Source of the DNA: Frankiaceae bacterium
GTDB lineage: Bacteria; Actinomycetota; Actinomycetes; JAFAQI01
DNA: 54,195 bases
Assembly (NCBI GenBank): GCA_030840585.1
Contig: JAVEEG010000254.1
Coordinates: 1-54,195 of the forward strand
Direction: 5' to 3'
The translations under genes were made by a program, and so were the position numbers. The notes below the pieces were generated by a model. That model did not search any database, was not told the origin of the DNA, and worked only from the letters and a program-made list of their open reading frames with translations. Position 1 is the first letter of the stretch. Each line of letters opens with the position of its first letter. This document shows, one piece after another, positions 8,035 through 46,981 of the stretch.

Positions 8035-8290
8035 CGCGGGTGTTCACTGTCGCGGTGATCCGCCGGGGGCTGGTTCGGGGCGGCGGTTGGTAGCGCTGGG
8101 TGCTGCCTTCGTCTTGAAGGCGAGTGCCCGCGAGTCCTTGCAGGTCACCGGGCGACCTGACACCAAAGGAGGGGATGGATAGCCAGGCATGGCTGCGTTG
8201 AGTGGGACCAAAGACCCTACTTAACTGTTGCTGGGCAGGTAGATCTGAGTTCGACGTCAGGTCCGTTGTACGTCCGTCGACAAGGCAGCC

Positions 8291-27511: not shown

Positions 27512-27666
27512 GTCAGACCTCCTGCACCTCGCCACGCTCGTCGCCGTACGTGCGCCGCGCCAGGGTCGGAAGGCTCAATTTCCTTTGGTACGGCGGCCAT
27601 CACGCTTACCGGTGAGCCGATCGGGCACAGGTGCTCACAACCGCAACTTGACCAAGGAGCTGCTCC

Positions 27667-28065: not shown

Positions 28066-28076
28066 CGCGCGAACTC

Positions 28077-29837: not shown

Positions 29838-29850
29838 GAGGTAACTCCAG

Positions 29851-29880
29851 GAAAGGTTGGGTGGCGGAAAGGTTGGGTGG
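29851..29880. repeat. tandem direct repeat (gaaaggttgggtgg x2) just upstream of the M15 peptidase RBS
   Basis: Copies at 29851-29864 and 29867-29880 are identical 14-mers separated by 'cg'. On the coding (-) strand they read CCACCCAACCTTTC twice, ending 5 nt before the GGAG of the RBS. Confidence 0.6.
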
Positions 29881-30065
29881 GTTGTCGTTAACCCTGTCCC
29901 AATGTCCGGTTCGGGGTCGATAGTCCGATGTGCCCATTTACCCCGGCACCCGCAACGGGGGGTGCTGGCACACGTGGACGCGAACGCCGTGGACCGTCTA
30001 GTCCTCTTAGTTGGCTTACGACGTTTCCGCTGCGGCGAGTCTCGACCAGGCCGCATCGTTGAGCC

Positions 30066-30296
30066 GTGCCCGCGTGTGATGGCTGCCTCGGCGACACCTC
30101 GTGCTGGGTGTGCCTGGGCACCGGCGTGGTCGACGCGGCCGACGGCCCGACCCCGTGCCGCCGTTGTTACGGCTCCGGGCGCTGCTCGCTCTGCCAGGAG
30201 ATCGCGCTCGTCGAGATCGAGGAACCGCCGCTGTTCCGGCTCTGGCCGCCGGCCATCGGCCGCCGCCGGACCAGAACGCAGCCGCCGGCTCACTGA
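30066..30296 (+). CDS. small cysteine-rich protein with DnaJ-type CxxCxGxG zinc-finger repeats
   Basis: 76 aa. It has four CxxC units (CDGCLGD, CWVCLGTG, CRRCYGSG, CSLC). GC3 is clearly higher than in the overlapping frame. The GTG start has no obvious SD. Confidence 0.45.
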   Translation: MPACDGCLGDTSCWVCLGTGVVDAADGPTPCRRCYGSGRCSLCQEIALVEIEEPPLFRLWPPAIGRRRTRTQPPAH

Positions 30297-30446
30297 CGGG
30301 CGCCACCTTGGCCGGGAGGCGGCACTCGGGCCGGGCTGATCCCCTAACTCGGCCGACACATTCCGGCGCCCCACTAGCGAATCGTGCGTTCGCGGACAGC
30401 GCGTGCGACTTGACCGCACTACGGTCGCGATCAAGGAGGTCTCGCC

Positions 30447-33400: not shown

Positions 33401-33656
33401 CGGCCTGCGTGCGGCGCTCGACCACTTCGGTGCAGGGGTGCAGCCGTATCAGCCCGGTACGGCGGTTCCGCACGGCGCGTGGCTACTCGGAAAATCGACG
33501 ATCCGGGTGGTCTTGCTGACCACGCCGAAGGGTGAGCCGGCGCTGGTGCTCACGCCGGGCGTTGAGGCGCTGGCTGACCCGGGGATCTGGATCGATGAAC
33601 CACCGGCGCACGGCTTGACCGAGATGTGGGTGCCCTCGGTCAAGCCGCGCAAGTAG
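30447..33656 (+). CDS. large leaderless zincin-like metallopeptidase-domain protein with an N-terminal Ig-like (Big_2-like) segment and four C-terminal repeats
   Basis: ATG follows CAAGGAGG. 'GGTVTFTAKAD...TIDANTGDLTV' is Ig-like. 'LLAHELGHMV' encodes HExxH at 31047-31061. 'NPHEDFAETFA' (31536-31559) is a candidate third zinc ligand. Four repeats carry the signature 'HGDGL.RY.PG...G.V..V'. Confidence 0.8.
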   Translation: MVSIKIPSEPLVRGGTVTFTAKADADETLTWTAGPPGAATIDANTGDLTVEDRPAAPYVTVEVHAKKPDGKPSGTDSAKVGITLEWPEDWPYLSDGGLPWFSDSASKGAIPWADGGNEAKADRLRIILWDLVDQLPQGVRDALGPVPFVRVTWVNDNRGGIAIALPSGGAVAVNDTCFTALTADSPKIEPADENIVGLLAHELGHMVMSGLLGPAVWFKALASLTVAILEVVGAAFGEYEAIMHGVLVVPPFPKIAEIVLRTSIWGWGDEMSDYASKGGWQVPSLVGFDVPLLNLLFPWLAAEAPNGLTAWASLNPKQPGLPIPLTNTTFDAATVLALNPADPNYATNLGKAGVPTPYAATNPHEDFAETFARLLLGAKYHGTNAVEPSKDRRDYFIRKGLLVDHPGTPTFIQGAHVAGTLVPDSAAPPSWRLAARAKPKPKQARHVMAAAEFDPDKFDEALLKWYDGPERRIEDARAILAKLPRPPAEAAPLPFLAAAEMHGDGLARYRGVEHPLDPGALLTSDDQRVWLATRVDEQRRVTTVIGDPGGETLPAGGNLPQTDRDALVLHWQPDATPRDWAAGGQPLSPNYADVDAALAQLVPLWGRTDTDNFFVAALHASGLADADKDTGLPKEPCGRDVLAYCETHGDGLVRYEPGVGVAVGDFALLYGGTAWGVVTRVTPDGTPVDVLVGDPTHIPGLVGEEPDAVKLRHGLDLTALPVYAADSDDVLRRRALNATHPLDVDHIWRPAATTRRYVTEEAPVSDAFENLNLALNHLVSHVGLDYLERQGETTQTGNTDMVWASVGLLLERGATADARKRLRGFHGSEREVRDSRFFYGTLSSGGPVQPGDVIGWRTKGGTAEGVVLTVDGGEATRVFTQGKQFVVRDDRVPAESVVWAWTPSATPRELVDDPAIAAFYGDPSALERLVNLRSTAAIPYEDHNYGGESYTCFYTKPDGFVRLLSLNAPDDVRKALWADTDTEFAGLRAALDHFGAGVQPYQPGTAVPHGAWLLGKSTIRVVLLTTPKGEPALVLTPGVEALADPGIWIDEPPAHGLTEMWVPSVKPRK

Positions 33657-33702: not shown

Positions 33703-36642
33703 TTAGCGACTGATCACGAGATTCCATCGGCGGCTGAGCAGCCCGGCACCGACAAGCACCAGGCCGGCGATCGACAGCGCCGCCGAGCCACCGCTGTTCG
33801 CGAGCGACCCACCGCTGCCGCTGGCCGACGGCCCGGACGGCTTCGGCGGCAGCTTCGCGGACGTCCCGCTGGCGGCCAGCGGGTAGACCCAGACACCACG
33901 GCCGTACGTCGCCGCGACGAGGTCCTTGCGATCGGCGGAGAAGTTGATGCCGAACACCCGGACCGTCGGCATCCCGGTACCGAGCTTCTGCCACACCGTG
34001 CTGCCGACCTTCGCGGTGAACACGCCGTAGTCGGTCGCGGCGTAGACCCGGCCGCCGGCCACCTTGATGTCCCACACGTTGCCGCGCGGCAGGTTGCCGG
34101 ACACGTCGGTGACGTGGTCGCCCGCGTCGGTGCTCATCAGCACCCGCGGTGCCGCGGCGCCGCCGAAGTCGACCCGGATGACGCTCGGCGTGATGGTCGC
34201 GATGTAGACGCGCTTCACGTTGGTCGGGTCGGCGGCGACACCGTAGATCTCCCGGGCCGGCATCCCCTTCAACTGCGCGAAGTGCCAGCAGTCAGTGCTG
34301 CCGGTCTTCGCCGTACAGCCGGGCTTGACGTTCGTCGCGAGGGCGCGGTCGAGCGATCCGATCGGCGCCTTCACCGACGACTGGCAGGCGCCACAGGCAC
34401 CGATGTACATGTACGCGCCGTTGACGTCACTGGCTTCGGCGAGCCGGCCGACCCCGTTCGGCGCGGTGCCGAGGTCGAAGACCTGCACCCAGTCACCGGT
34501 GTTGGTGGCGCCGTCGCCACCATCCGTGTCTGCACCCTTCGTCGACTCGTAGACGACCGACGTGGCGAGCACGAGGTGCTTGCTGTCGAACGGATCCATC
34601 GCCGACCCGCCCGGCTCGAACACCGGCTCACCACACGCCGACGTCAGCGGGCAAGGGTCGATCTCGCTCGTCGTCTTGCCGCCGTCGGTCGTGACGTACG
34701 TTGCGCCGTTCGCATTGCAGTAGAAGATGTTCGGGTTGTCCTTGTCGACGCCGACCCAGGTGCCGTCGCCGCCGCAGATCTCGTAGGAGTTGTTGCTGCC
34801 GGGCGGGTAGAAGTTGGTGCCGTTGTCCTGCAGGCCGGCGATGATCTCGCCGTTGCTGCCCTCGACTGCGCGGTACGGCAGCAACTGGTTGAGGTGTGCC
34901 GCCGACGTCCACGCGCCGTTCTGGAACGACGAGCCGGACGCGTGGTCCTGAAGGAACGCGCCGCCGTCGTTGCCGATCCACAACCGCGTCGCGCCGCTGC
35001 CCTTGTCGACCACGGCCACGCCGTGCTGGTCGGGGTGCGTCACCTGACCGCCGTACGGCCCGCCGCCCGGGCAACTCCCCGACGGGACAGCAGGCGTCGT
35101 GACGATGCCGCACGCGGAGACGTACGCGTCGATCGACTCGAACGGCACCGGCTTGAGCACCCCGCCCGTCGGCGGCGTCGTAATCGTCGCGTCGACGAGG
35201 CTCTGGTAGACCTCTTCCTCGCCAATCAGCAGGCGATTTCCGTTGGGATCAAAGGCGATCCAGCCGTTGTACCAAGCCTGGACGCCGGTGTCGTAGCCGA
35301 GCAGGCTGGCCGCGGAGAGCGCTGCCTGGACGCTGCCGGGCGACGCCGTCAGCGACTCCGAGGTCGCGATCTCGTCCCATGTCCCACCGTCGTCGGCCGA
35401 ACGGTAGACACCGTTCAGGCTGGTCGGGTGCGGGATGCCGAGCGGGTCGTACGGGTCGTACGCCGCGGCGAGGCCGGTGGAGCGGTGGCCGGCGTCGGCG
35501 ACGAGCGCGAACAGGTACTTGCCGTCGGGCGAGAACGTGAGCCGGGTCCGGCCGATCGGGTCACTGGAGATGTGACCGTACGGCTGCTCCCAGCCGGTGG
35601 TGGTGCTGGTGACGTTGATGCGGTGGAACGATCCGACCGCGCCGCTCGTGGTCGATGAGTAGAGACCGTTGCCCGGCGCCGCCTTCGACGTCGTGCCGTC
35701 CGGGTGGGTGATGGTCACGTTGCCGGCGACGTAGCCGACCGCGGCGAACACGGTGTAGGCGCCGTTGGATCCCGGCTTGATGACGACGTCCGAGGTCCAC
35801 GATCCGACCGGCGTATCGGTGGCCGGGCCGGTGCCGGCGGCGTTGGTCGGCAGCCGTACGTCGGACCACGTCACCCCGTGGGTGGTGGACCTGAACAGAC
35901 CGCCTGTCGTCGCGGCGAAGACCGTGCCGTCGGGGCCAACCGCTACCTGCTGACCGGCGCCGCGCACCGACGTCGCGGAGGGGTGCCAGGTCGCGCCGCC
36001 GTCATGGGAGTAGTAGGCACCGAGGCCGCCGTACTCGCCGCCGCCCTGGAAGCCCTGGCCGGTGATCGCGTAGACGTTCAAGTGATTGGTCGGGTCGACG
36101 GCCACCGCGGCCACCGGCATCGCCGGGATGCCGGCCGCGGCGGTCCACGACGCGCCGCCGTTGGTGGTCTTGTAGACACCGCCGCCGGTGCCGGCGTAGG
36201 CGACGTCGCCGGTCGTGCTGGTCGGGTCGGTGGCGAGCGCGAGGACGATGCCGGTGGTCGGGAACCGGCCCTCGCTGGTCGCGTAGTTGGGGTCGTTGAG
36301 CAGCTGACCGGTCGGGCCGATCTGGCGCCACGGGTGGGCGTTGGGGGCGAGACCGGCGGCGGCCGCCTTGGCCAGCGCTCCCTGGTCGAACGCGACCGGG
36401 TCGGCGTCCGGCGGCGCGGTGGACAGCGCCATCGCGTCCTTCGCGCCCAGCAACGGCCGGGCCTCGCGGTGGAACACCCGGTCGATCTGCTGCTGATCCT
36501 GCGCTCGCGCGCTCGACCGCGCTGCGCTGGGCGCGGCAGATGGCGCCGCTACCGGTACGGCGGTCGCGGCGCTCGCCACCAGTGCCAGGGCTCCGGTCGT
36601 GATCAGCATGAGGGGCAGTCGTCGTACGGTCACATCAGCCAC
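33703..36642 (-). CDS. cell-wall-anchored Asp-box (BNR) beta-propeller protein, sortilin/GH74-like
   Basis: Repeats include 'TTNGGASW', 'SHDGGATW', 'STTHGVTW', 'SADDGGTW' and 'TTDGGKT'. The C-terminal sorting signal is 'LANSG' (33790-33804) followed by a hydrophobic helix and 'RRW'. The start (GTG 36642 or 36633, just before a signal peptide) is approximate; the track ORF runs to 36726. Confidence 0.85.
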   Translation of the reverse strand: MADVTVRRLPLMLITTGALALVASAATAVPVAAPSAAPSAARSSARAQDQQQIDRVFHREARPLLGAKDAMALSTAPPDADPVAFDQGALAKAAAAGLAPNAHPWRQIGPTGQLLNDPNYATSEGRFPTTGIVLALATDPTSTTGDVAYAGTGGGVYKTTNGGASWTAAAGIPAMPVAAVAVDPTNHLNVYAITGQGFQGGGEYGGLGAYYSHDGGATWHPSATSVRGAGQQVAVGPDGTVFAATTGGLFRSTTHGVTWSDVRLPTNAAGTGPATDTPVGSWTSDVVIKPGSNGAYTVFAAVGYVAGNVTITHPDGTTSKAAPGNGLYSSTTSGAVGSFHRINVTSTTTGWEQPYGHISSDPIGRTRLTFSPDGKYLFALVADAGHRSTGLAAAYDPYDPLGIPHPTSLNGVYRSADDGGTWDEIATSESLTASPGSVQAALSAASLLGYDTGVQAWYNGWIAFDPNGNRLLIGEEEVYQSLVDATITTPPTGGVLKPVPFESIDAYVSACGIVTTPAVPSGSCPGGGPYGGQVTHPDQHGVAVVDKGSGATRLWIGNDGGAFLQDHASGSSFQNGAWTSAAHLNQLLPYRAVEGSNGEIIAGLQDNGTNFYPPGSNNSYEICGGDGTWVGVDKDNPNIFYCNANGATYVTTDGGKTTSEIDPCPLTSACGEPVFEPGGSAMDPFDSKHLVLATSVVYESTKGADTDGGDGATNTGDWVQVFDLGTAPNGVGRLAEASDVNGAYMYIGACGACQSSVKAPIGSLDRALATNVKPGCTAKTGSTDCWHFAQLKGMPAREIYGVAADPTNVKRVYIATITPSVIRVDFGGAAAPRVLMSTDAGDHVTDVSGNLPRGNVWDIKVAGGRVYAATDYGVFTAKVGSTVWQKLGTGMPTVRVFGINFSADRKDLVAATYGRGVWVYPLAASGTSAKLPPKPSGPSASGSGGSLANSGGSAALSIAGLVLVGAGLLSRRWNLVISR

Positions 36643-36796
36643 AAGCCCTACTTCTCCGGCCGCGCTGGGCGACCTGCTTGGCACAATCGCGCGAGATGGA
36701 TCTGACGTCGGAGTAAGAAACGCCACCCCACGCCTGACTCATAACCCCGCGCTGGCAGGTTGCAAACTTCGAACAGCCGAGACCGAGGAGGCCGCG

Positions 36797-37207
36797 ATGC
36801 GGACGCTGCACATCGGTCTACGAGTGCGCGACCTCAACCGGTCGCTCTCGTTCTACACGACCCTCGGTTACGAGCTCGTCGGCGCCGTGCCAGAAACCGA
36901 GTTCGGCAGCCTGACGATGTTGAAGCTCCCCGGCGACGCGTTCGTCAGCATCGAACTCGTCTACGACGCGGCCGCCGGCGCCATCGACGCGCGCGGCCTC
37001 AACCACCTCGTCGTACAGGTTGAGGATCTGCACGCGACGGTCGCTCGCCTCGGCGCAAGCGGCATCGACGCCGAGGCGCCCAGCTCACCCAACGGTTCCG
37101 CAGACTTCTGGACGACCTGGCTCACCGATCCCGACGGCTACCGGATCGAACTGGTGCAATGGCCCGCGGGTCACGCCGACGGGCTCACAGCGGCCGACTT
37201 CCGCTAA
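36797..37207 (+). CDS. VOC/glyoxalase I family protein
   Basis: ATG 36797 follows GAGGAG. 'HIGLRVRDLNRSLSFYTTLGYE' and 'NHLVVQVEDL...DPDGYRIELVQ' are present. Confidence 0.85.
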   Translation: MRTLHIGLRVRDLNRSLSFYTTLGYELVGAVPETEFGSLTMLKLPGDAFVSIELVYDAAAGAIDARGLNHLVVQVEDLHATVARLGASGIDAEAPSSPNGSADFWTTWLTDPDGYRIELVQWPAGHADGLTAADFR

Positions 37208-37336: not shown

Positions 37337-39133
37337 CTAGTGGCAGGGGTAGTACTCGTACGTCATGTGCGTGCCCCAGGTGAACACGGCGCCGGCTGCG
37401 ATGCTCTGGTAGACGATCTTGTCGGTGTCGGTGATACCCGACGGTCTCGTCGACGTGCACGTCGTGCCGAACGGTCCTAGCGCTTTGATGCTCGGCTTGT
37501 CGGAATCGGTCGGCGCGGACGGCGAACACGTGTTCCCGCAGCCGTACGCGTTGTAGTAGTTCGGCATGTACCGCGTCGTGTCTCGCACCGTCCAGGTGAA
37601 CGAGCGGCTCGCCGTCGCCTTGCCGTCGGAAACCATTGCGGTGAGCCGGAAAACCCGGCTCTTGATGCTCGTGTAGTTCGTGGTGACCGAGGCGGCCGAA
37701 ACGCTGATCGTGCCCGAGATGACACCGGTGCTGCGGTTCAGCGACAACCCGGCCGGTAATGCGCCGGACAACGCGTACGTCAGCGAGTTGTGATCCGCGT
37801 CGGCACCGGCGAGCCGAAGGCTCACCGACTTCCGCTCGTTGGTGGTCTGCGCTGCCACCGCGGTCAACGTCGGCGCGTGGTTGCCCGCGGCCGGCGCAGT
37901 GGATCCGGATGGCACCACCGGAACGCTCGATGACGCGGGTGTCGTTGGCGGGGTCGATGGCGCGTGCTTCGTCGCGGTCGAGCGCGGCGAAGGCTTGTGC
38001 GCGACCGGCGACGTCGACGTTGCGCCAGACGACGGCGACGTACTCGACACCGGAGTGCCTTGCGCCAACTGACGGGCACCGTGATGCCACGGCTGCGCGA
38101 TCGCGACACCGGTTATGGCGGCGATCGCAGCGGCCGCGGTGACGATCGCGACGACGCGCCGGCGTGCATGCGGAGTCGGCCCCGGCTGCGGCGGCAGCAT
38201 CGGCGTGGCCCGGCCGCGGCGTCCGATGACGGTCGCCGGATCCGTCTGTTCCCCATTGGCATCGACCGGGTCGCTTGCCGGCGCGACCACGCCGGCGATC
38301 GCCAGCGCAGGCGCATCCGCACCGGCCGCGCGCAGCGCATCGACCAACTCCGCGCCGAACTCCGCCGCCGAACGCGGCCGGTCCGCCGCGTCCTTCGCCA
38401 GCGCGCGATCGATGACGGCGGCAGCGGACTGCGGTACGCCGAACTCGGCCAGCGACGGTGCCGGCTGCGTCGTGATCCGCGCGATGAGCTCCGGCATCCC
38501 GCCCGGGCCGCTGACAAATGGCGAGTGCCCGGCGATGAGTGTGTAGAGCGTCGACGCTAACGAGTAGACGTCGCTCGACGCGGTCGCCGGCCGGCCACTC
38601 AGGATCTCGGGGGCGGCATGCGAGAGCGTCGCGGCCACGGCCGCGGTCGTCGTCGAACTACCGGTCAGCGTCGCGATGCCGAAGTCGCTGATCTTCGCTT
38701 CGCCGTAGTTGCCGAGCAGCACGTTGTCGGGCTTGACGTCGCGATGGATGACACCGGCACGGTGCGCGGTCTCCAGCGCACCGGAGAGCTGGACACCGAA
38801 CCGGAACGCCTCCTGCCAGCTCGCCGAGCCGATCCGCTCGGCGAGGGTGCCGCCGGTGACGAGTTCCATCACGAAGACCGGCATGCCTGAACTGGTACGG
38901 GCGATCGAGTAGACGTTGACGATGTGCGGGTGCGGCGGCAGCGCGGCGACCGCACGGCGCTCCCGATCGAACCGGCGCTCGGCGTCGTCGTCGAGCCTGG
39001 TCTCGATGACCTTCAACGCGACTCGACGGCCAAAGGCCGGATCGTGCGCGCCGTACACGGTGCCGAAGCCGCCTTGCCCAAGCAGTGTGAGGTCGCGGTA
39101 ACCGAGCCCGACAAGTTCGTCGTAGCTAGCCAC
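37337..39133 (-). CDS. transmembrane Ser/Thr protein kinase with extracellular Ig-like (He_PIG-type) and PASTA-like domains
   Basis: GTG 39133 follows AGAGGA; the track ORF runs to 39205. Kinase motifs: 'LGQGGFGTVY', 'VALKVI', 'HRDVKPDNVLL', 'DFGIA', 'APE'. A TM helix 'VVAIVTAAAAIAAITGVAIA' follows. The ectodomain has 'LPAGLSLNRSTGVISGT' and a C-terminal 'IVYQSIAAGAVFTWGTHMTYEYY'. Confidence 0.9.
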   Translation of the reverse strand: MASYDELVGLGYRDLTLLGQGGFGTVYGAHDPAFGRRVALKVIETRLDDDAERRFDRERRAVAALPPHPHIVNVYSIARTSSGMPVFVMELVTGGTLAERIGSASWQEAFRFGVQLSGALETAHRAGVIHRDVKPDNVLLGNYGEAKISDFGIATLTGSSTTTAAVAATLSHAAPEILSGRPATASSDVYSLASTLYTLIAGHSPFVSGPGGMPELIARITTQPAPSLAEFGVPQSAAAVIDRALAKDAADRPRSAAEFGAELVDALRAAGADAPALAIAGVVAPASDPVDANGEQTDPATVIGRRGRATPMLPPQPGPTPHARRRVVAIVTAAAAIAAITGVAIAQPWHHGARQLAQGTPVSSTSPSSGATSTSPVAHKPSPRSTATKHAPSTPPTTPASSSVPVVPSGSTAPAAGNHAPTLTAVAAQTTNERKSVSLRLAGADADHNSLTYALSGALPAGLSLNRSTGVISGTISVSAASVTTNYTSIKSRVFRLTAMVSDGKATASRSFTWTVRDTTRYMPNYYNAYGCGNTCSPSAPTDSDKPSIKALGPFGTTCTSTRPSGITDTDKIVYQSIAAGAVFTWGTHMTYEYYPCH

Positions 39134-39266
39134 ACCGCATCCTCTCGCGCGGGCACCAACCGTTGCGGGTGCCGGTGAACGCACGATAAGCGGACTCCGG
39201 GACACAAGGAGGGCGAATCGTCGAATTCACGTCCGGTCAGGCGCGGGTAGCGCAGACTTGCCCGCA

Positions 39267-42200
39267 ATGGACCTCTGGATGCGCGTCGAGGCGTCGGACA
39301 CGCCGGCCCGTGATGTCGCCGTCGAGTGCAGCCCGGAGAACACCGTCGAGCAGCTGCTCGGCGCGCTGCGCGAGCATCTGCGGCTCGACCTCGCTACGGC
39401 GGCGATCACGCGCACCGGCGAGCGGCTTTCGCCGCGGGCGACGTTGCAGGACGCGGGGCTGCGATCCGGCGACACCTTGCGACCGCGGGTCACGCCGGTG
39501 CGCGGCGGGCCGGCGCATCGCCTCGTCGTCGCCGGCGGCGTGGACGTGGGGCAGTCAGCCGACCTCGATACGTCGACCGGCGAGGTCACGATCGGCCGGG
39601 GCAACCGCGCCGGCCTTCGGGTCCACGACAGCACCGTCTCGTCGCTGCACGCTCGGCTGCGCCGAACACCTGACGGCTACACCGTCGAAGATCTCGGTTC
39701 GTCCAACGGCACGTTCGTCAACGGCGTCCCGGTTACCGGCGCAGTCGCGGTCGAGGTGGGTGACCTCGTCGAGGTCGGCGACGTCGCGCTGCGGATCGCC
39801 GCGGCACCGATGCCGCCGCCGCCGATCCCGCTGAGCGAGGGCCGGCTGCAGTTCACCCGCGGGCCGCGAGTGAGCCGGGCCAATGCGACGACGGTGTTCG
39901 AAGTGCCGGCGCCGCCGGAAGAGCCGACGAAACGTCGGTTCGCGCTGTCGACCGCGCTGGTCCCGCTGGCGATCGCGCCGGTGATGGCACTGATCACCCA
40001 CCAGATCTCCTACCTCGCGATGGCCGCGCTCTCGCCGCTGATCGCCGTCGCGTCGGTAGTCGAGGATCGGCGGCACGGCAGCAAGGACCACGGCAAGAAG
40101 GTCGATGCGTTCCGCCGCGCGGTCGACTCGGCGAGCACGTCGATGGCCGAGTCGGTACAAGACGAGACCGTGGCGCGCTGGTTGGCCTTTCCGGACCCAG
40201 CCGACATCGTCCGGCGGACCACCGGGCCGGCCGCGGATCTGTGGGAGCGACGGCTCGCCGATCCCGACGCGCTCGCGCTTCGGGTCGGTTGGGGCGACCT
40301 GCCGGCGTCGGCTCGATGGGCGATGCGCGAGGGCGGCGAGCAACAGCTGCGCGACGAGGCCGCTGGAGCACTCGGGCAGCACGGCGTCGTACGTTCCGCA
40401 CCCGCCACGGTCACGTTGAAGACCACGCCGGTCGTCGGCGTGAGCGGATCGACCGACGACGTGGACGAGACCGCTCGGTGGCTGGTCGCGCAGGCCGCCG
40501 CACTGCACAGCCCGCGCGAACTGAGCGTCGTCGTCGCGGTCGGCGATGCGCGCGCGGACGCGTGGGAGTGGGCAGCGTGGCTGCCGCACTGCCGCGAAGC
40601 CGACGCGCCGGAGGGCTCGATGGCGACCGTCGCTGTCGGCGGTGCGGAAGCAATCGCCGCGGTCGGCGCGCTCAATGACCTTGTGTCGCAACGGATCCGG
40701 CAGCGCGATGACCGGTCGGCGGCTAAGGCTCCGTCCGCCGCCGTGCTCGCGGTGATCGATCACCGGGCCGGTGTGCCGGCACCGCTGGTCACCGATCTGC
40801 TCGAACGCGGCCCCGGTGCCGGCGTGCATGTCATCTGGCTCGGCGAGTCACGTACGTCGTTGCCGGGCGAGACCTCCGCGATCGTCGACATCCGCGAGCG
40901 GACCGTGTCGGTGACGACCGTCGCCGGCGGCGCCGGTGTCAGCGAGGCGATGCGCGACCGCTGCCCGCCGGAGCTCGCCGCGGACGTCGCTCGCGCACTC
41001 GCCGGTGTCCGCGACGCGTCGGCGCGCAACGCGGTGCGCGGTGACCTGCCAGCCGCGGTCTCGCTGTCGACGGTGCTCGGTGGCATCGACGTCGACCGCA
41101 TCGTTACGGCGTGGACCCGCGACCACCGCAAGCTCGATGCGCCGCTCGGTCTTGGCGAGCACGGCGTCTTCTCCGTCGACCTGCGCCACGACGGGCCGCA
41201 CGGCCTACTCGGCGGTACGACGGGCGCCGGCAAGTCGGAGTTGCTGCAAACGTTGATCGCGTCATTGGCGGCGCGGCACCCACCGACCCGGCTGACGTTC
41301 CTGCTGGTCGACTACAAGGGTGGTGCGGCGTTCAAGGACTGCGTGCATCTCCCGCACGTCGTCGGCTTCGTTACCGACCTCGGCGGCGCGCTGGTGAACC
41401 GCGCGCTGGTGTCGCTCGGTGCCGAGGTACACCGGCGCGAACGGCTGCTCGCCGAGGCCGGCGCGAAGGACCTGCTCGACATGGAACGCATCGCGCCCGA
41501 CCGCGCGCCGGCCAGCCTGCTGGTCGTGGTCGACGAGTTCGCGACCCTCGCGAAGGAACTGCCGGAGTTCGTCGACGGTGTCGTCAACATCGCGCAGCGC
41601 GGACGCTCGCTCGGCGTACATCTGATCCTCGCCACCCAGCGGCCCGCGGGTGTCGTCAACGACAACATCCGGGCGAACACGAACATGCGGATCGCGTTGC
41701 GGATGAACGACGAAACCGACTCACGTGACGTCGTCGGCGTACCCGATGCGGCCCGGTTGCCGCGCAGCATTCCCGGCCGGGCTTACGTGCGCACCGGTGC
41801 CGGCGAGCTCGCGCTCGTGCAGGTCGCCTTTGCCGGCGCGACCGATGCACCCAGTGCCGAAGCCAGCACGATCGTCGTCGCCGACATCGAGCGCGGCCGG
41901 GTGGTCCATCGGGACCGCACCATCACTACCGCGGCGCCGGCGGCGTCTGGCAGCACCGATCTCGAACGTGTCGTCGCCGCGAGTGTGGCCGGCGCGGACA
42001 AGCTGGCGCTGCCGGCACCAGTGACGCCGTGGCTGCCGCCATTGCCGGATCTGGTCCGGCTCGACGACCTCGACGGCGCGGGGATCGGTCTCGTCGACGT
42101 ACCCGCGCAGCAGCGGCAGGTGCCGTACGCCGTCAACCTGCAAACCGACGGAAACCTGTTGGTACTCGGTGCTTCCGGCGCCGGCAAGACCACGTTGCTG

Positions 42201-43553
42201 CGCACCCTGGCGGTCTCGCTCGCGCGCCAGCACTCCCCCGCCGACCTGCATCTGTACGCGCTGGACTTCGCCTCGCGCGGTTTGCGCACCCTCGCCGCGC
42301 TGCCGCACTGCGGGGCCGTCGTCGCCGGTGACGACGTCGACCGGATCGCGCGCATGTTCACGACGCTGCGCCGGTGGATCGAGGAGCGTCGGCGGCGGTT
42401 CGCCGAGACCGGCGCCACGTCCGTCGACGAGTACGCGCGCCTCAACGCTCACGCCGCGCCGATGCCAAGGGTCGTCGTCATGCTCGACGGCTACTCGGGC
42501 TTCGCCTCGGCGTTCGAGAAGGTCGAGCACGGCGCGCTGATCGACGAGCTGCCGCGGTTGGTCGGTGACGGTCATGCAGTCGGCGTTCACTTCGTCATCA
42601 CCGCGAACCGGCGCAACGCGTTGCCGCCGAGCCTCGCCGCACTCATCTCGACCTCGATCGTCTTCCGGCTGGCCGACGCCGACGACTACAGCGCCGCCGG
42701 TCTCGACGCGCGGTTGCTGAAAGGCGCCACGCTGCCACCGGGCCGCGGGTACCAAGCCGGTACGACGACCGAACTGCAGTGCGCGGTCGTAGGCATCGAT
42801 GCAAGCGGTGACGCGCAGCAGGCCGCGGTCTCCGCGATCGCCGCCGACCTCGTCGCCCGATGGCCGGGCCAGCAGGCGCCACCGGTCGCGACGTTGCCCG
42901 ACACCGTCCCGCGGCGCGACGTCGCCGGGCTGTCGCGGTCATTGCGTCCGGTCGTCGGCATCGGCGAGCGGGAGTTGGCGCCGGTCGCGATCGATCTCGA
43001 AGAAGCGCACTTCTTCGTGGCCGGCCCGATCCGATCCGGCAAGTCCGCTGCACTCGCTGCCCTAGCGCTCGGGCTTCGGGAAGCGGATCCGGATCTGCGA
43101 CTCGTCCTGCTGGCACCGCGGCGATCGCCGTTGACATCGTTGACGATCTGGTCGGCACTCGCCCGCACGGACGACGACATCACCGCGTTGTGCGAGCAAC
43201 TCGAACAGACCGCATCGGACAGCACCGCCGAGCCCACTGTCGTCGTACTTGACGACGGGCAAGAACTACTTGACAGCGCGGCGAGCGGCAGCCTGGAGAT
43301 GATGGCGCGGCGCGGTCGGGACACAACGTTGCGCCTCGTTGCCGCGTGCGACATCACCGCCGCGTTGCGCGCGTACGGCGGTTGGGTCGGCGAGCTGAAG
43401 AAGGACCGGCACGGCCTGCTGCTGCAGCCGGATGCGGACAACGACGGCGATCTGTTCGGGCTTCGATTGCCGCAGCTGCGGACCAATCCGCCAGGGCGGG
43501 GTTACCTAGTCACTCGATTTGGCGCAGAGCCAGTACAGGTCGCGCAATCGTGA
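39267..43553 (+). CDS. EssC/EccC-like type VII secretion ATPase: ubiquitin-like + FHA + 2 TM + three FtsK/SpoIIIE P-loop modules
   Basis: The ORF is open from TTG 39258. ATG 39267 was chosen, and ATG 39279 is also possible. The FHA segment is 'GEVTIGRGN..SSLHARL..DLGSSNGTFVNG'. Walker A motifs lie at 41211-41237 (GGTTGAGKS), 42169-42195 (GASGAGKTT) and 43023-43046 (GPIRSGKS). Walker B is 'LLVVVDEF'. Confidence 0.9.
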   Translation: MDLWMRVEASDTPARDVAVECSPENTVEQLLGALREHLRLDLATAAITRTGERLSPRATLQDAGLRSGDTLRPRVTPVRGGPAHRLVVAGGVDVGQSADLDTSTGEVTIGRGNRAGLRVHDSTVSSLHARLRRTPDGYTVEDLGSSNGTFVNGVPVTGAVAVEVGDLVEVGDVALRIAAAPMPPPPIPLSEGRLQFTRGPRVSRANATTVFEVPAPPEEPTKRRFALSTALVPLAIAPVMALITHQISYLAMAALSPLIAVASVVEDRRHGSKDHGKKVDAFRRAVDSASTSMAESVQDETVARWLAFPDPADIVRRTTGPAADLWERRLADPDALALRVGWGDLPASARWAMREGGEQQLRDEAAGALGQHGVVRSAPATVTLKTTPVVGVSGSTDDVDETARWLVAQAAALHSPRELSVVVAVGDARADAWEWAAWLPHCREADAPEGSMATVAVGGAEAIAAVGALNDLVSQRIRQRDDRSAAKAPSAAVLAVIDHRAGVPAPLVTDLLERGPGAGVHVIWLGESRTSLPGETSAIVDIRERTVSVTTVAGGAGVSEAMRDRCPPELAADVARALAGVRDASARNAVRGDLPAAVSLSTVLGGIDVDRIVTAWTRDHRKLDAPLGLGEHGVFSVDLRHDGPHGLLGGTTGAGKSELLQTLIASLAARHPPTRLTFLLVDYKGGAAFKDCVHLPHVVGFVTDLGGALVNRALVSLGAEVHRRERLLAEAGAKDLLDMERIAPDRAPASLLVVVDEFATLAKELPEFVDGVVNIAQRGRSLGVHLILATQRPAGVVNDNIRANTNMRIALRMNDETDSRDVVGVPDAARLPRSIPGRAYVRTGAGELALVQVAFAGATDAPSAEASTIVVADIERGRVVHRDRTITTAAPAASGSTDLERVVAASVAGADKLALPAPVTPWLPPLPDLVRLDDLDGAGIGLVDVPAQQRQVPYAVNLQTDGNLLVLGASGAGKTTLLRTLAVSLARQHSPADLHLYALDFASRGLRTLAALPHCGAVVAGDDVDRIARMFTTLRRWIEERRRRFAETGATSVDEYARLNAHAAPMPRVVVMLDGYSGFASAFEKVEHGALIDELPRLVGDGHAVGVHFVITANRRNALPPSLAALISTSIVFRLADADDYSAAGLDARLLKGATLPPGRGYQAGTTTELQCAVVGIDASGDAQQAAVSAIAADLVARWPGQQAPPVATLPDTVPRRDVAGLSRSLRPVVGIGERELAPVAIDLEEAHFFVAGPIRSGKSAALAALALGLREADPDLRLVLLAPRRSPLTSLTIWSALARTDDDITALCEQLEQTASDSTAEPTVVVLDDGQELLDSAASGSLEMMARRGRDTTLRLVAACDITAALRAYGGWVGELKKDRHGLLLQPDADNDGDLFGLRLPQLRTNPPGRGYLVTRFGAEPVQVAQS

Positions 43554-43610: not shown

Positions 43611-44204
43611 ATGACGCGAATCTCGGTGGATGCAAAGAGCCTGACTACGTACGGCACGGCGGCCGAGCAGGCGTTCAAAGGCGTACGTACCGAACTCACG
43701 GGTCTCGTGCACAGCTGCACGACCGTTCCTTACGAGGGCCCGAACTCGGCGGCGTTTAAGAACGGCTGCGGCAAGCTCGCGACCGAGTTCTCCGCGTCAC
43801 TGCTCAGCGACATCGGCAAGTTCACCGACGCCGTCCGCGACGTGACGACGGGCATCGCGCGCTCGCTCGGCGGGCATCCCGTGACGATTCACTTCAACGG
43901 CAGCCCGATCACGGCGCCGGCGGTCCCGGCCGCGGACCCCAACTACACGATGGTCGACACGTCGCCGCTGCATCAGCTGAAGTCGACGGTGCACGGCCAC
44001 TTCAACAAGATCAACGCGCACCTCGACGAGCACCTGCGCGCCTTCCAGCACGCGAAGTGGGAAGGCCACGCGCGCGAGGCTGCGCACAGCGCGCTGCGGA
44101 CCTTTACGTCGAACACGAAGTCGGACGTCACCCAAGCGCAGCAGCACATCGAGAAGTTCATCGACGAGCAGATCCAGAGCGTCACCACCGCCGACCAGGG
44201 GTAG
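43611..44204 (+). CDS. single-chain tandem WXG100-like protein
   Basis: 197 aa; ATG follows GAAGGG. The first hairpin carries 'YEGPNSAAF' (43731-43739). The second carries the canonical 'WEGHAREAAHSAL' (44058-44066). A Pro-rich linker between them contains YTMVD (43944-43958). Confidence 0.65.
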   Translation: MTRISVDAKSLTTYGTAAEQAFKGVRTELTGLVHSCTTVPYEGPNSAAFKNGCGKLATEFSASLLSDIGKFTDAVRDVTTGIARSLGGHPVTIHFNGSPITAPAVPAADPNYTMVDTSPLHQLKSTVHGHFNKINAHLDEHLRAFQHAKWEGHAREAAHSALRTFTSNTKSDVTQAQQHIEKFIDEQIQSVTTADQG

Positions 44205-44210
44205 CGACCG

Positions 44211-44531
44211 ATGGTGACGTTGCCGCCGAAGCCTCCCGGTGACGTGGCAGCGACGCAAGCGATGATCCGCAAGTTGCAAAGCGAGCGCAACGGCGTCGTG
44301 GAACTGCGGAAAGCGCTGGCGAACCTGCTCAACGGAGCTGAGGATCTCTCCGGCATCTACATGCTCGGCGTGACGACGTTCCGGCTGAGTGCGATCGCGC
44401 AGGTCGACATCGCGATCACCGGAGTCGACGCGGCGATTGCCTCAGCGAAGACTGCCGTCGCGCGGCTGGAGCACGACCTCGCCGCGTGGCGGCAGGAGTG
44501 CGCCCGGATCCAGGCGGCGGCGTCACCATGA
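44211..44531 (+). CDS. small helical protein (about 100 aa, PE/EsxB-sized partner candidate)
   Basis: 106 aa, predicted helical. Its stop overlaps the next start (ATGA at 44528-44531). Confidence 0.55.
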   Translation: MVTLPPKPPGDVAATQAMIRKLQSERNGVVELRKALANLLNGAEDLSGIYMLGVTTFRLSAIAQVDIAITGVDAAIASAKTAVARLEHDLAAWRQECARIQAAASP

Positions 44532-45640
44532 GCGACTCGATGGACCTCGAGCAGGTCGAGGCATTGCTGCGGAACATGGGTCACGTCGTTCAACGGGTCG
44601 AGACGATGGGCGGTGCGCTCGGCGCGGCGTGGCAAGGAGTCGACCTGCCGCGGGGCTGCGACCTCTCCGGGCTCGCCCTTGCACTCAAGAGCCTTCAGGC
44701 GGTCGGGCAGGAGACGGCAAGCCAGGCGAAGTTGTTGTACGACACCGTCACCGAGGCCACGAAGGCCGACAAGAGTTGGGGCGATCACGTCAAGGGCTGG
44801 CTGACGCCGCCGAAGACCGGCCATCACTCCCTCGACGCCGTCTTCGGCGCGCCGGCTTCCGTCGCCGCCGGCGCCACCGACGTCGGTTACGACCTCGGCG
44901 CCGGTGTCGTCGGGTTGACCTGGGACATCATCGACATCCCCGGCGACGTCAACGCCTACCGGCACGGCGACGTGATGCCGATCCAGAAGCCCGGGCTCGG
45001 CCTGATCAATGTCGCCGTCAATCCCGAGGATGCGGGCAAGGCGCTGATCGGCTGGAAGTACCACAACGACCCGCTACGGATGGGCACGTATGCGGTCGGC
45101 AACCTGCTCACGATGATCGCGACCGGCGGCCTCGGCGAGCTCGCGGAGGGCACGCTCGCTGCCCGGCTGGCCAAGCTCACCGCGGAAGGCAGCACGACCA
45201 GCCGCTCGCTCGCAAAGGCCATCGAGGACCTCGAGCGCAGGCGAGCCGAGTTGCCCTCGAGCCGGCAGCGGTCGCCCGGCAAGCGCAAGTGGGTCCGGCA
45301 AGAGAAGTCGTCGATCGACCGCGACCTCGAGCGGCTGCGCAAGCATCTCAACGAACACCAAGAGCACATGACGAACGTTCGCGACCGCTACAACGCGCTC
45401 GCGAACCTGCGCAACAACCGTTGGGTCACGGGCTTCGGCGACGCGACCGCGCTGTACATCCCGACGGCGGTCCAGAAAGTCGTGAACTGGATCAGCCATG
45501 GCCACAGTGACGCGATCAAGGAGATTCTGGAGAAGTACATGGAACTCCAGGGCTACGCGACCGGCGGCCAGGACTACACCGACAGCAAGGAAGCCCGCCG
45601 CCGGTTGGCCGAGTTCGCCGCGAACCACCCGAGGAGCTGA
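44528..45640 (+). CDS. WXG-headed putative type VII substrate/effector
   Basis: ATG 44528 lies in frame inside the track ORF 44486..45640. The N-terminal helical hairpin carries 'GAAWQGVDL' (WQG at 44630-44638). The middle is a Gly-rich hydrophobic segment '...NLLTMIATGGLGELAEG'. The last ~150 aa are charged and helical. Confidence 0.6.
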   Translation: MSDSMDLEQVEALLRNMGHVVQRVETMGGALGAAWQGVDLPRGCDLSGLALALKSLQAVGQETASQAKLLYDTVTEATKADKSWGDHVKGWLTPPKTGHHSLDAVFGAPASVAAGATDVGYDLGAGVVGLTWDIIDIPGDVNAYRHGDVMPIQKPGLGLINVAVNPEDAGKALIGWKYHNDPLRMGTYAVGNLLTMIATGGLGELAEGTLAARLAKLTAEGSTTSRSLAKAIEDLERRRAELPSSRQRSPGKRKWVRQEKSSIDRDLERLRKHLNEHQEHMTNVRDRYNALANLRNNRWVTGFGDATALYIPTAVQKVVNWISHGHSDAIKEILEKYMELQGYATGGQDYTDSKEARRRLAEFAANHPRS

Positions 45641-45641
45641 C

Positions 45642-46361
45642 GTGGCTTACAGCCTGAGTTTCACCACCGAGGAGTGGGCAGCGGCGATCGCCGCACTCGA
45701 ACTCCCCGAACCACTCGGCCTCGATGGCATCACCGGCCCACCGGACGGTGAGCCCGACAGTGCGGCGCTGGCCGTCGGCGCTCGGTCGTTGCTGGGTCGC
45801 GGATTGTTCGACCCGTCCGACTCCGATCGCGACGTCCATCCGTTGTTCGTCGGGCTGCTGCTCGCTTTGCTCGAAGCGGAAGAGGTCGTCGTCGTCACCA
45901 CCGCGTACCCGGGCGCGACCACCACCAACGGTTGGTACGTCGTCGGCGCGACCGGCGTATCGATGTCGCAGGATCCGTTGACGAATCTGCGGTTCCGGGT
46001 CGCGCCGGCGAACGAGGTGATCGCGCAGGCGAAGGACACGTTCGCGCAACTCGCGACGGCGGCGCCGGCCCGCGAGCAGTACCCGGTCGAGCCGAGCGAT
46101 CTACGCGCCGTACTCGAATCATTGACCGGCGAGGACCAGCCGAGCCCGGTGCTACGGACCGGGGGGACATCCCGCCCGGTCTCGTTCCTCGCCAGCATTC
46201 GCGGCTGGACCCGCGAGGGTCAGGACGTCGTCGAGTCGAGCCTGTTCGCGGTCGGCTTGACCGGTCACGGCAACTGGGTCGTCGACGACGGTGGCGGCGT
46301 ACCCGTACTCACCCAGATGCGCTCGCCATGGCCCGATGCGTTGAACCGGTTCACCGCCTGA
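45642..46361 (+). CDS. EspG-like chaperone candidate (alternatively an immunity protein)
   Basis: GTG 45642 sits 5 nt after GAGGAG and 1 nt after the upstream stop. 'LSFTTEEWAAAIAALELPEPLGL...ARSLLGRGLFDP...VHPLFVGLLLALLEAEEVVVV' follows the EspG N-terminal pattern as I recall it. Confidence 0.45.
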   Translation: MAYSLSFTTEEWAAAIAALELPEPLGLDGITGPPDGEPDSAALAVGARSLLGRGLFDPSDSDRDVHPLFVGLLLALLEAEEVVVVTTAYPGATTTNGWYVVGATGVSMSQDPLTNLRFRVAPANEVIAQAKDTFAQLATAAPAREQYPVEPSDLRAVLESLTGEDQPSPVLRTGGTSRPVSFLASIRGWTREGQDVVESSLFAVGLTGHGNWVVDDGGGVPVLTQMRSPWPDALNRFTA

Positions 46362-46420: not shown

Positions 46421-46981
46421 GTGCTCGCCATCATCGTTATCGCCGTGGCAGCGCTCGTGCTGCTGCTGGTCATCCTCGGGTTCAACAGCCTCGTGCGGTC
46501 CCGCAACAAGACCGACAACGCGTGGGCGCAGGTCGACGTCCAGCTGACGAAGCGCCACGACCTGATCCCGAACCTCGTCGAGACGGTCAAGGGTTACGCG
46601 GCCCACGAGCGGCAGACCTTTGAAGCCGTGACGGCCGCGCGCACCGCCGCGCTGAACACCCGCGGCCCGGCTGCACAGGCGGGAGCCGAGAATGCGTTGA
46701 CCGCGGCGGTGGGCCGGTTGATGGCGGTCGCCGAGAACTACCCCCAGCTGCGGTCGAGCGCGAACTTCCTCGCGCTCCAGGATCAGCTCTCCTCCGTCGA
46801 GTCCGGCATCGCGTATGCCCGGCAGTACTACAACGACTCGGTCCTGACGTACGAGAACCGCCGCAATCAGTTCCCATTGTTGCTGATCGCGGGTCCGCTC
46901 GGTTTCGGCCAGCGTGAGTACTTCAAGGCCGATGCGGCCGCGACCGAACCGGTCGCGACGTCCTTCACCGCCTCCCCGTGA
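46421..46981 (+). CDS. lemA: LemA family protein
   Basis: An N-terminal TM helix is followed by 'FNSLVRSRNKTDNAWAQVDVQLTKRHDLIPNLVETVKGYAAHE' and 'AENYPQLRSSANFLALQDQL...YYNDSV..YEN'. Confidence 0.9.
   Translation: MLAIIVIAVAALVLLLVILGFNSLVRSRNKTDNAWAQVDVQLTKRHDLIPNLVETVKGYAAHERQTFEAVTAARTAALNTRGPAAQAGAENALTAAVGRLMAVAENYPQLRSSANFLALQDQLSSVESGIAYARQYYNDSVLTYENRRNQFPLLLIAGPLGFGQREYFKADAAATEPVATSFTASP

Follow-up and report, generated by a model that had tools for sequence, protein, structure and literature searches.

On a 54,195-bp contig from a metagenome-assembled Frankiaceae bacterium (hereafter the window, to which all positions refer), a gene for a membrane serine/threonine kinase and a 4.3-kb gene for a large membrane ATPase diverge from a short shared intergenic region, and four further genes follow the ATPase in the same direction. 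The ATPase opens with a ubiquitin-like (Ubl) domain and a single FHA domain, set in front of what is predicted to be the motor of a type VII secretion system (T7SS). We read the region, with a moderate degree of confidence, as the head of a type VII-like secretion ATPase, serving regulation and assembly, together with a phospho-signalling partner kinase that would gate it. The G+C-content of the window lies between 64% and 73%, and overlapping open reading frames (ORFs) were resolved by frame analysis of GC-content by codon position, requiring a third-position GC (GC3) above 0.82 and a second-position GC below 0.62; the kinase gene, the ATPase gene and the four co-directional genes 3' of it are all supported in this way (Table 1).

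Table 1. Features of the kinase-ATPase region, with window positions and the evidence or content on which each is based (aa, amino acids; L-numbers denote homologous loci).
Feature	Position (nt)	Strand	Content or basis
Membrane Ser/Thr kinase	37337..39133	-	598 aa; Pfam Pkinase and He_PIG
Divergent intergenic region between kinase and ATPase	39134..39266		133 nt
Predicted ubiquitin-like, YukD/EsaB-type beta-grasp domain, ATPase residues 1-74	39267..39488	+	Pfam, profile against PDB, AlphaFold2, Foldseek
Single canonical FHA domain, ATPase residues 84-178	39516..39800	+	Pfam FHA, alignments, Foldseek, phmmer
ATPase FHA-to-membrane linker and two transmembrane helices	39801..40061	+	Direct sequence reading, linker conservation
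EccC/EssC-type ATPase body: stalk/DUF and three FtsK/SpoIIIE P-loop domains	40062..43553	+	NCBIfam, PDB relatives
197-aa protein with two WXG100-like halves; candidate Esx-like secreted substrate	43611..44204	+	Sub-threshold PF06013
106-aa helical protein; possible WXG100-like partner	44211..44531	+	Conserved in L081, L082, L091
~371-aa conserved protein (component or substrate)	about 44525..45640	+	Conserved in L081, L082, L091
~240-aa conserved protein, last gene of the conserved block	about 45642..46361	+	Conserved in L081, L082, L091; weakly in L083

The ATPase gene (39267-43553, plus strand, with GC3 supporting a plus-strand frame that ends at 43553) encodes 1428 residues. We prefer the ATG at 39267 (MDLWMRVE...) to an in-frame ATG 12 nt further downstream, because homologues start M-E-L-W-L-R-V and the modelled first beta-strand starts at residue 2. 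A first-pass annotation of this DNA had begun the head of the protein at the downstream codon, 39279; that codon is in frame and the coordinates of the head were about right, but the upstream start is the better one, and with it the divergent region has exactly the 133 nt that had been claimed. Hydrophobic segments at residues 225-243 and 249-265 are the two transmembrane helices, preceded by a linker motif common to the family (F-[TNS]-R-x-P-R-V, residues 196-202) and followed by a stalk/DUF region (LWERR, residues 325-329; WLPH, residues 438-441) and three P-loop domains with Walker A motifs at residues 649-658, 968-976 and 1253-1261. The NCBIfam EssC model (TIGR03928) aligns with residues 191-1413 at 605.6 bits, below its cutoff of 778.4, and EccCa (TIGR03924) likewise falls short of its cutoff (419.2 against 509.15 bits); EccCb (TIGR03925) exceeds its own on the C-terminal half (377.1 against 346.55 bits). 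Its best relatives of solved structure are EccC from Thermomonospora curvata (4NH0, 7e-87), EccC5 (1.8e-69) and YukB from Bacillus subtilis (9QKS, 6.3e-66), the alignment with YukB running from residue 178. The protein is, as predicted from these comparisons, a divergent member of the EssC/EccC family that lies between the curated subfamilies.

Public records call this family 'cell division protein FtsK' or 'segregation ATPase', and the window protein 'segregation ATPase FtsK/SpoIIIE family'; the Pfam FtsK_SpoIIIE model does match its P-loop domains. Taken at face value, these names describe a DNA translocase that has nothing to do with protein secretion, which we consider very improbable indeed. 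The three tandem P-loop domains, two N-terminal transmembrane helices and EccC-type stalk/DUF all argue against it, as do the family scores, where EssC and EccCa/EccCb come first and the FtsK model reaches 62.9 bits, the identity of the closest solved relatives (EccC and YukB), and the presence of WXG100 or WXG100-like genes next to the ATPase both in the window and in its relatives. The ATPase is predicted to be a secretion motor of the type VII kind and not to translocate DNA.

The first 74 residues, when searched in isolation, match the Pfam family Rad60-SLD (E 9.7e-6; 25.8 bits against a cutoff of 23.8), a match that is weak at the extreme N-terminus when the full-length ATPase is scanned. 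They also match YukD (PF08817), below its cutoff (E 1.2e-3; 20 against 27 bits); the same model is matched by 19 of 38 homologous N-terminal segments at E<=0.1, at best with 2.7e-7, and one homologue (P0182) has a precomputed PF08817 match. When a profile of the Ubl family was compared with PDB chains, ubiquitin-family proteins were found at E-values down to 1.8e-8, and EccD/Snm4 at just 0.06-0.29. AlphaFold2, given the 38-sequence alignment, modelled residues 1-201 of the ATPase with a predicted local distance difference test (pLDDT) score of 92, and the Ubl alone with a pLDDT of 96.8 and a predicted TM-score (pTM) of 0.85, in the order beta-beta-alpha-beta...beta that defines a beta-grasp. 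Foldseek matched the Ubl model to ubiquitin, SUMO, NEDD8 and the Dsk2 UBL among PDB structures, with TM-scores of 0.63-0.73 and a probability of 1.0; these matches came from the Ubl-only model, and the two-domain Ubl-FHA model returned FHA matches only. The beta-grasp fold that had been read into the ATPase N-terminus is therefore borne out by structural modelling. The domain lacks a C-terminal Gly-Gly and the chain runs on into the FHA domain. Most likely, it would be a cis-fused equivalent of YukD/EsaB in T7SSb and of the Ubl domain of EccD in T7SSa.

One FHA domain had been claimed to follow, and one is there: Pfam FHA (PF00498) matches the ATPase in a single copy (E 2.6e-15; 57 bits against a cutoff of 20.7). 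It carries the full canonical phosphothreonine-binding set, namely G110-R111 (nt 39594-39599), S125-x-x-H128 (nt 39639-39650) and N147-G148 (nt 39705-39710), and these residues are conserved in two alignments. Its best Foldseek matches are the FHA domains of GarA, OdhI and Rv0020c (target TM-scores of 0.77-0.89, about 33% identity), and phmmer links it to OdhI and GarA at about 5e-7, so that it resembles these proteins rather than the degenerate FHA domains of EssC. The domain directly precedes the F-x-R-x-P-R linker and the transmembrane helices, that is, it occupies the FHA2 position, and we infer that it corresponds to the membrane-proximal FHA2 of EssC/YukB, with the Ubl replacing FHA1. 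Its role would probably be to read phosphothreonine written by the partner kinase.

That kinase starts with GTG. Its kinase domain (residues 12-254, nt 38372-39100) matches Pfam Pkinase at E 6.5e-44 and 150.7 bits, its solved relatives are PknA, StkP and PknB (1e-35 to 1e-33), and its catalytic motifs are all present: GQGGFGTV and VALK, as well as the HRDVKPDN, DFG and APE that had been read from the sequence before. A single transmembrane segment (residues 327-346, nt 38096-38155) is followed by a linker rich in Ser, Thr and Pro, by an Ig-like He_PIG domain (residues 421-516, nt 37586-37873, E 8.8e-11), and by a C-terminal module of about 80 residues that contains Cys and is conserved in orthologues. 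The ectodomain had been described as Ig-like plus PASTA-like; the first half of this description stands, but the second does not, since neither Pfam nor NCBIfam finds PASTA in the kinase (the NCBIfam PknB_PASTA_kin match spans residues 12-346 only) and the Cys-containing module is there instead. The protein is predicted to be an intact, single-pass Hanks-type Ser/Thr kinase of the PknA/PknB type, and catalytically competent. All partner kinases in the family share one layout, in which the kinase domain is followed by a juxtamembrane Thr-hydrophobic motif, an Arg-rich stretch, one transmembrane segment and a variable ectodomain. The juxtamembrane motif in the window kinase, PATVIGRRGRATP (residues 299-311, nt 38201-38239), contains PATVIG, and PTKLR, PTSLG, ATRLG, TTVIV or ETIVD occur in others. 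In the closest loci (L081, L088, L089, L091, L092 and L083) the kinase ectodomain is orthologous to that of the window kinase, and therefore the pairing of kinase and ATPase is inherited and not accidental.

The intergenic region retains conserved blocks among four close orthologous loci (the window, L081, L088 and L089), including ACAAGGAGGGCGAAT. The block ACAAGGAGGGCGAATCGTCGAATTC lies about 45-70 nt upstream of the ATPase start, too distant to be the ribosome-binding site of that gene, and the corresponding region of L091 instead has about five tandem copies of a unit of about 19 nt. Between 39134 and 39266 we found no sigma-70 consensus, no terminator and no convincing operator, just short inverted repeats. 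We also considered an operon link between the kinase and the upstream gene for a 1007-aa BNR/sortilin beta-propeller protein, which might have provided an Esr-like sensor; this was rejected, given that a glyoxalase gene on the plus strand (36797-37207) intervenes and that the BNR gene is absent from related loci.

A full-length search with the ATPase returned more than 100 homologues of 1390-1530 residues, almost all of which open with the same Ubl pattern; they come from across Actinomycetota, where the variant is widespread, among them Frankiales, Micromonospora, Gaiellaceae, Solirubrobacteraceae, Acidimicrobiales, Streptomyces and Actinomadura. When a profile of the head (207 positions) was run against a representative library, about 35 of the top 150 matches were single, full-length and at or near the N-terminus, on proteins of about 1400-1600 residues or on shorter, apparently cut proteins; the top ranks were mostly multi-FHA proteins and the search gives no clean family size. 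A search with residues 1-274 brought up hardly anything but generic FHA proteins, and a genome scan on the generic FHA pattern D[LAS]GSSNGT[FY] yielded 80 loci, none encoding a Ubl-FHA ATPase. Among the proteins that the head profile matched, P0257 (1601 aa) has a Ubl and two FHA domains, both with GR...S..H...NG, before its transmembrane segment, while P0303 and P0318 (1254 and 1420 aa, rich in Lys and Glu) consist of 12-13 tandem ubiquitin-like repeats and look eukaryotic and unrelated. In the branch from Streptomyces and Actinomadura the FHA domain is without the Arg, Ser, His and Asn residues of the binding set.

Co-occurrence of kinase and FHA-ATPase in other genomes was found in seven of seven homologue loci retrieved by exact protein look-up (L081-L087), each of which has a Pkinase gene within 10 kb of the ATPase; the two are directly adjacent in four, divergently in L081 and L083 and with the kinase immediately upstream in L085 and L086. 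A further 80 loci came from scanning metagenomes for a stalk motif specific to the family, Q[AT]A[AVT]LHSPR, and all loci were translated in six frames and searched with purpose-built hidden Markov models (HMMs) of Ubl, FHA, ATPase core and kinase domain. Counts were made on 72 distinct N-termini, 22 of them with the canonical R/S/H/N tetrad and 50 with a degenerate FHA. A kinase was present in the fetched DNA of 15/22 canonical loci and of 4/50 degenerate ones (Fisher exact p = 3.5e-7). Many metagenome contigs are short; with adequate flanks, defined as at least 3 kb upstream and at least 8 kb downstream, the proportions are 9/10 and 3/14 (p = 0.0028), neither test being corrected for phylogeny. 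The degenerate group also provides an internal background rate for kinase genes of about 8%. The kinase nearest to each canonical-FHA ATPase retains VAxK, HRDxKPxN and DFG, and two neighbours of degenerate-FHA ATPases are pseudokinases, in L087 from Streptomyces albus (VSVR, HLD..R, GHA) and in L132 (HGR, DFA); a jackhmmer search seeded with these two found no further kinase-fold ORFs. Not every member of the wider family has the kinase, which follows the canonical-FHA clade, and in metagenome loci the co-occurrence is specific to an intact FHA tetrad. This split within one family is new evidence and supports phospho-regulation.

Several of these loci have features of their own. In L092 (2644-12646, one metagenome contig) two paralogous Ubl-FHA ATPases, both with the canonical tetrad, flank one kinase gene. 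In L087 (1-3053, from the chromosome of Streptomyces albus subsp. chlorinus) the pseudokinase gene comes immediately after one for a TgpA-type transglutaminase (TgpA_N, Transglut_core, DUF4129), and three pairs of genes for proteins of about 100 and about 570-670 residues lie between the pseudokinase gene and the ATPase; the pairing of transglutaminase and kinase recalls the Esr clusters (2026 preprint, PMC13622651). L086 (1-21251, a Solirubrobacteraceae metagenome-assembled genome) has a second, FHA-less EccC-like ATPase, recognised by the Ubl HMM only, as well as two WXG100 genes and a gene for a CHAP-domain protein; two kinases flank its Ubl-FHA ATPase, and the second, more distant one is partly degenerate (HRDLRPDC).

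The kinase and the FHA domain could conceivably be structural partners that meet without phosphorylation, as EssC FHA2 and EssB do, the activity of the kinase then serving other targets. There is precedent in the phospho-independent contact between FHA and pseudokinase in T7SSb (PMC12637312; PMC11217815), and the topology of the kinase, an N-terminal kinase fold, one transmembrane segment and an ectodomain, is EssB-like. Yet the phosphothreonine-binding tetrad is strictly maintained in just those loci with an intact kinase close by and has been lost in the others, purifying selection on R/S/H/N would be hard to explain without phospho-binding, and the nearest FHA folds, GarA and OdhI, depend on phosphothreonine. 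We regard a phospho-free partnership as distinctly unlikely.

The genes 3' of the ATPase bear on what such a motor might move. The 197-aa protein has the motif Y41-E-G in its first half and W150-E-G in its second, both invariant in four orthologues; its C-terminal half gives sub-threshold matches to PF06013 in the window (2.7e-3), L081 (0.015) and L082 (2.7e-4), and its N-terminal half does so in the L083 orthologue (8e-4). It resembles a head-to-tail fusion of two WXG100-like hairpins, in place of the usual EsxA/EsxB pair of proteins of about 100 residues. The 106-aa protein has no Pfam match in the window, and its L083 counterpart has a weak WXG100_2 match (2.3e-3). The ~371-aa protein comprises an N-terminal helical region with A-W-Q-G, a stretch of hydrophobic residues and, at its C-terminus, a region resembling a coiled coil, with no Pfam family above threshold; the ~240-aa protein has no Pfam match, and profiles of this protein and of the 197-aa protein matched no PDB sequence. 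Near the ATPases of more distant loci, WXG100 (PF06013) matches are recorded in L086 and L087 and, as weak matches, in L084 and L085. Pfam searches found no EccB, EccD, EccE or MycP (mycosin) in the window or in the seven homologue loci, and the window has no EsaA- or EssA-like genes. A 513-aa ORF (11224-12765, minus strand) has a weak Peptidase_S8 (subtilase) match (E 1.5e-5), 27 kb from the ATPase; as a candidate mycosin it was set aside, not being conserved near homologues. Nor is there a conserved counterpart to the large Ig-repeat gene TsdI, the 1069-aa ORF at 30447-33656 being absent from related loci as a conserved gene.

A second alternative would place the kinase upstream, with transcription or some further protein as its target (a substrate, a chaperone, a separate FHA protein), in the manner of IreK in E. 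faecalis or Esr in Schaalia; the FHA domain of the ATPase would then read phosphothreonine carried by a substrate or an adaptor. Kinases are documented to control T7SS at the level of transcription (cited in PMC11217815), Esx is controlled by the Esr threat-sensing pathway through a kinase and a separate FHA protein (PMC13622651), and in some loci the kinase gene lies several kilobases from the ATPase. Against this, genes for a separate FHA protein, MoxR, a vWA protein or a phosphatase were not seen in the window, and in the canonical-FHA clade the two genes most commonly lie tightly side by side, in many cases overlapping or divergent. We consider this alternative unlikely.

Elsewhere in the window, a pair of genes, for LemA and then for a DUF2207_C membrane protein (46421-48450, plus strand), lies just 3' of the conserved secretion block, and the same pair adjoins the homologous cluster in Micromonospora eburnea (L085, 17834-20266, minus strand; LemA E 2.4e-52, DUF2207 E 3.6e-38); based on these two loci, the pair may be a recurrent neighbour of the system. 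Three genes for c-di-GMP turnover (one GGDEF, two GGDEF-EAL) are found in the 54 kb, within 7093-10435 and 18738-21005, together with two genes for very large beta-propeller proteins of the BNR/sortilin type (15221-18682 and 33703-36726, each on the minus strand) and, at the contig end, a PAS-HAMP histidine kinase gene (52865-54178). The stretch of highest G+C-content (0.73), at about 28066-30400, has long overlapping ORFs on both strands (26901-29891 plus, 28077-32585 minus, 28462-29937 minus); none passes the GC3 filter there, and the two that were scanned, 26901-29891 and 28462-29937, are without a Pfam match.

In proposing how the components might work together, we begin from the domain identities and from the observed co-occurrence of canonical FHA and kinase, and from these we infer phosphorylation, binding and gating. 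We suggest that the fused Ubl would dock on the motor, at the DUF and the first ATPase domain, and position the FHA domain. A signal received by the kinase ectodomain would then cause the kinase to phosphorylate itself or the ATPase. Two sites, both weakly supported, are candidates: the juxtamembrane Thr motif of the kinase and the motif ATTVF in the linker between FHA and membrane of the ATPase (residues 207-211, nt 39885-39899), which is restricted to the closest clade and replaced by TETIF or TETVF in another. By binding the phosphothreonine, the FHA domain would recruit or lock the kinase-ATPase unit and so license the assembly or activity of the secretion complex, which would export the adjacent WXG100-like proteins. 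The partner kinase would be the active counterpart of the pseudokinase EssB/YukC, with which it shares its topology. For several of these contacts there are structural precedents in the 2025 cryo-EM study of the B. subtilis T7SSb core, where YukD contacts YukB at its FHA domains, its DUF and a hairpin in its first ATPase domain, thereby fixing the FHA domains and enabling YukC to bind FHA2, and where the linker between FHA and stalk in YukB binds the pseudokinase YukC and mediates YukB oligomerisation (PMC12637312).

A number of points weigh against this proposal. By sequence the Ubl is at least as close to generic ubiquitin as to YukD or EccD, so that a common origin with YukD is plausible and not more than that; phosphorylation, phosphothreonine binding and secretion are all deduced for the Ubl-FHA ATPase family from its sequences; and the candidate phosphothreonine motifs are short, partly conserved and placed in low-complexity linkers. 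The WXG100 matches in the window itself are below Pfam cutoffs, and the window has no PP2C phosphatase, though T7SSc/e clusters have one. The canonical-FHA proteins are largely one clade, and their association with the kinase may rest on few evolutionary events. Finally, there are exceptions to the association: one well-flanked canonical-FHA locus (L101) is without a kinase, intact kinases occur in three or four loci with a degenerate FHA, and in several loci the kinase lies 4-9 kb from the ATPase, not adjacent to it. Gating of secretion by threonine phosphorylation, as the first-pass annotation had suggested, is a putative mechanism that the present data support. That annotation had named three findings that would refute it, namely no beta-grasp fold, an FHA domain lacking the conserved binding residues, and kinase and ATPase failing to co-occur in other genomes; each was checked, and none was obtained.

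A more specific scenario, which we put forward tentatively and would not call probable, is that the locus represents an undescribed T7SS subtype of Actinomycetota, in which a YukD-like Ubl was captured in the place of FHA1 and a live kinase stands where EssB does, with an ancestral phospho-dependent contact between FHA and kinase, phospho-independent and frozen in T7SSb of Firmicutes, either preserved or re-created. A signal at the Ig-like ectodomain would generate a phosphothreonine, juxtamembrane or in the linker, that the ATPase's own FHA domain reads, leading to channel assembly, and those lineages that have lost the tetrad, and with it the kinase or all but a pseudokinase, would show degeneration of the T7SSb type in progress. 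The split between FHA and kinase states within the family supports the view that the contact between EssC and EssB descends from a phospho-regulated FHA-kinase pair.

The system touches on two open questions concerning T7SS, the role of the Ubl component, and why the ATPase of Firmicutes has FHA domains that are incompetent for phosphothreonine beside a pseudokinase. With regard to the first, a covalent tie between Ubl and ATPase holds the two at a ratio of 1:1, and favours a role for the Ubl that is structural and exerted directly on the motor. With regard to the second, the presence in one family of two FHA states, intact with a live kinase and degenerate with none or a pseudokinase, amounts to a natural experiment, through which post-translational gating of a T7SS could be tested directly; homologues are found in cultivable, genetically tractable genera, including Micromonospora eburnea, Streptomyces and Actinomadura. 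Meanwhile, the FtsK-type annotation conceals, in many Actinomycetota, an apparent second secretion system distinct from ESX.

The regulatory idea, that a kinase and a phosphothreonine-competent FHA domain control a T7SS, is not new. Control by threonine phosphorylation, with the analogy to the type VI secretion system (T6SS), was proposed in 2024 as a hypothesis for T7SSc/d/e (PMC11217815), in the study by Garrett, Higginson and Palmer that defined T7SSc-j; there, the phosphothreonine motifs of FHA domains are conserved in the ATPases only of those subtypes that also encode a membrane kinase (100/98/90% for TsdC and 98/99/90% for TseC, against 0/0/21% for EssC; PMC11217815, Table S1). The ATPases of T7SSd (Olsenella, Bifidobacterium) and T7SSe (Bacillota), TsdC and TseC, are EssC-like with a membrane-proximal FHA domain carrying GR/SxxH/NG, as here, and their clusters likewise encode a single-pass membrane Ser/Thr kinase with an intact active site (TsdD/TseD) and WXG100 proteins. 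T7SSd shares with the present locus an actinomycetotal host, a conserved phosphothreonine-motif FHA domain on the ATPase and a membrane kinase in the cluster, and it is the only non-ESX actinobacterial type in that study. However, the 1563-aa TsdC has an N-terminal region of about 120 residues that is aligned to EssC FHA1 and no Ubl, whereas the present ATPase has a Ubl and one FHA domain; T7SSd is the one subtype reported without a ubiquitin-like protein (PMC11217815); TsdH and the 1654-aa Ig-repeat protein TsdI have no conserved equivalent here; and the kinase ectodomain is Ig-like here and helical in T7SSd/T7SSe. We considered whether a Ubl might be hidden in TsdC, and rejected this: the published N-terminus from O. 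uli, machine-read from Fig. S2, aligned with the Ubl profile at an hhalign probability of 0.06%, and Pfam finds FHA only.

The T7SSb core (EssC/YukB, YukD/EsaB and EssB/YukC; Oka et al. 2025, PMC12637312) has a homologous ATPase body and the same trio of Ubl, FHA and kinase fold at the cytoplasmic face. In T7SSb, however, the Ubl is a separate protein of 80 residues, the two FHA domains are without phosphothreonine-binding residues, the kinase is a pseudokinase, and EsaA/YueB and EssA/YueC are present; at the present locus the Ubl is fused in the place of FHA1, the FHA domain is canonical, the kinase is of a predicted active type, and neither an EsaA-like nor an EssA-like gene was found. T7SSa (ESX) resembles it in its actinobacterial host, its EccC-type motor and a Ubl domain that contacts the ATPase, but that Ubl is fused to the polytopic EccD, an arrangement that was reported in 2006 as the sole one in actinobacteria (PMC1779556), EccC is without FHA, and the core is made of EccB, EccD, EccE and MycP, none of which was found here. 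In the literature searched, the coverage of which was incomplete, we found no description of a Ubl-FHA-EssC/EccC fusion.

Outside the T7SS proper, PpkA-Fha1 of Pseudomonas and TssL-Fha of Agrobacterium offer a functional analogy, with a membrane Hanks kinase that has an extracellular sensor, a phosphothreonine, an FHA reader and the assembly or activation of a secretion machine; the T6SS apparatus is unrelated, its FHA is a separate protein and it has a dedicated phosphatase, PppA, so the likeness is one of function only. The Esr pathway of Schaalia odontolytica (2026 preprint, PMC13622651) couples an actinobacterial Ser/Thr kinase and an FHA protein to Esx secretion, as shown experimentally, but it employs a beta-propeller surface sensor, MoxR, vWA, transglutaminase, phosphatase and a separate FHA protein, and acts on a canonical T7SSa. 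Genes of the Esr type do not flank the present ATPase, in which the FHA domain is part of the motor protein. By fold and sequence the closest FHA domains are those of GarA/OdhI and FhaA, which work with PknB/PknG, and the partner kinases here are likewise of PknA/PknB type. The ETTS of GarA and OdhI is an autoinhibitory motif, and GarA has ETTS-like Thr motifs of which ATTVF and TETIF, in the linkers of the Ubl-FHA ATPases, are reminiscent; GarA, OdhI and FhaA, however, are small soluble regulators of metabolism or the cell wall, whereas the FHA domain here sits on a secretion ATPase. As predicted from sequence, the fusion and its gene set match none of T7SSa-j, and the locus would represent an undescribed T7SS variant, free of Ecc and Ess accessory genes, in which a Ubl-fused ATPase with one canonical FHA domain is combined with an EssB-like active kinase and a tandem WXG-like protein.

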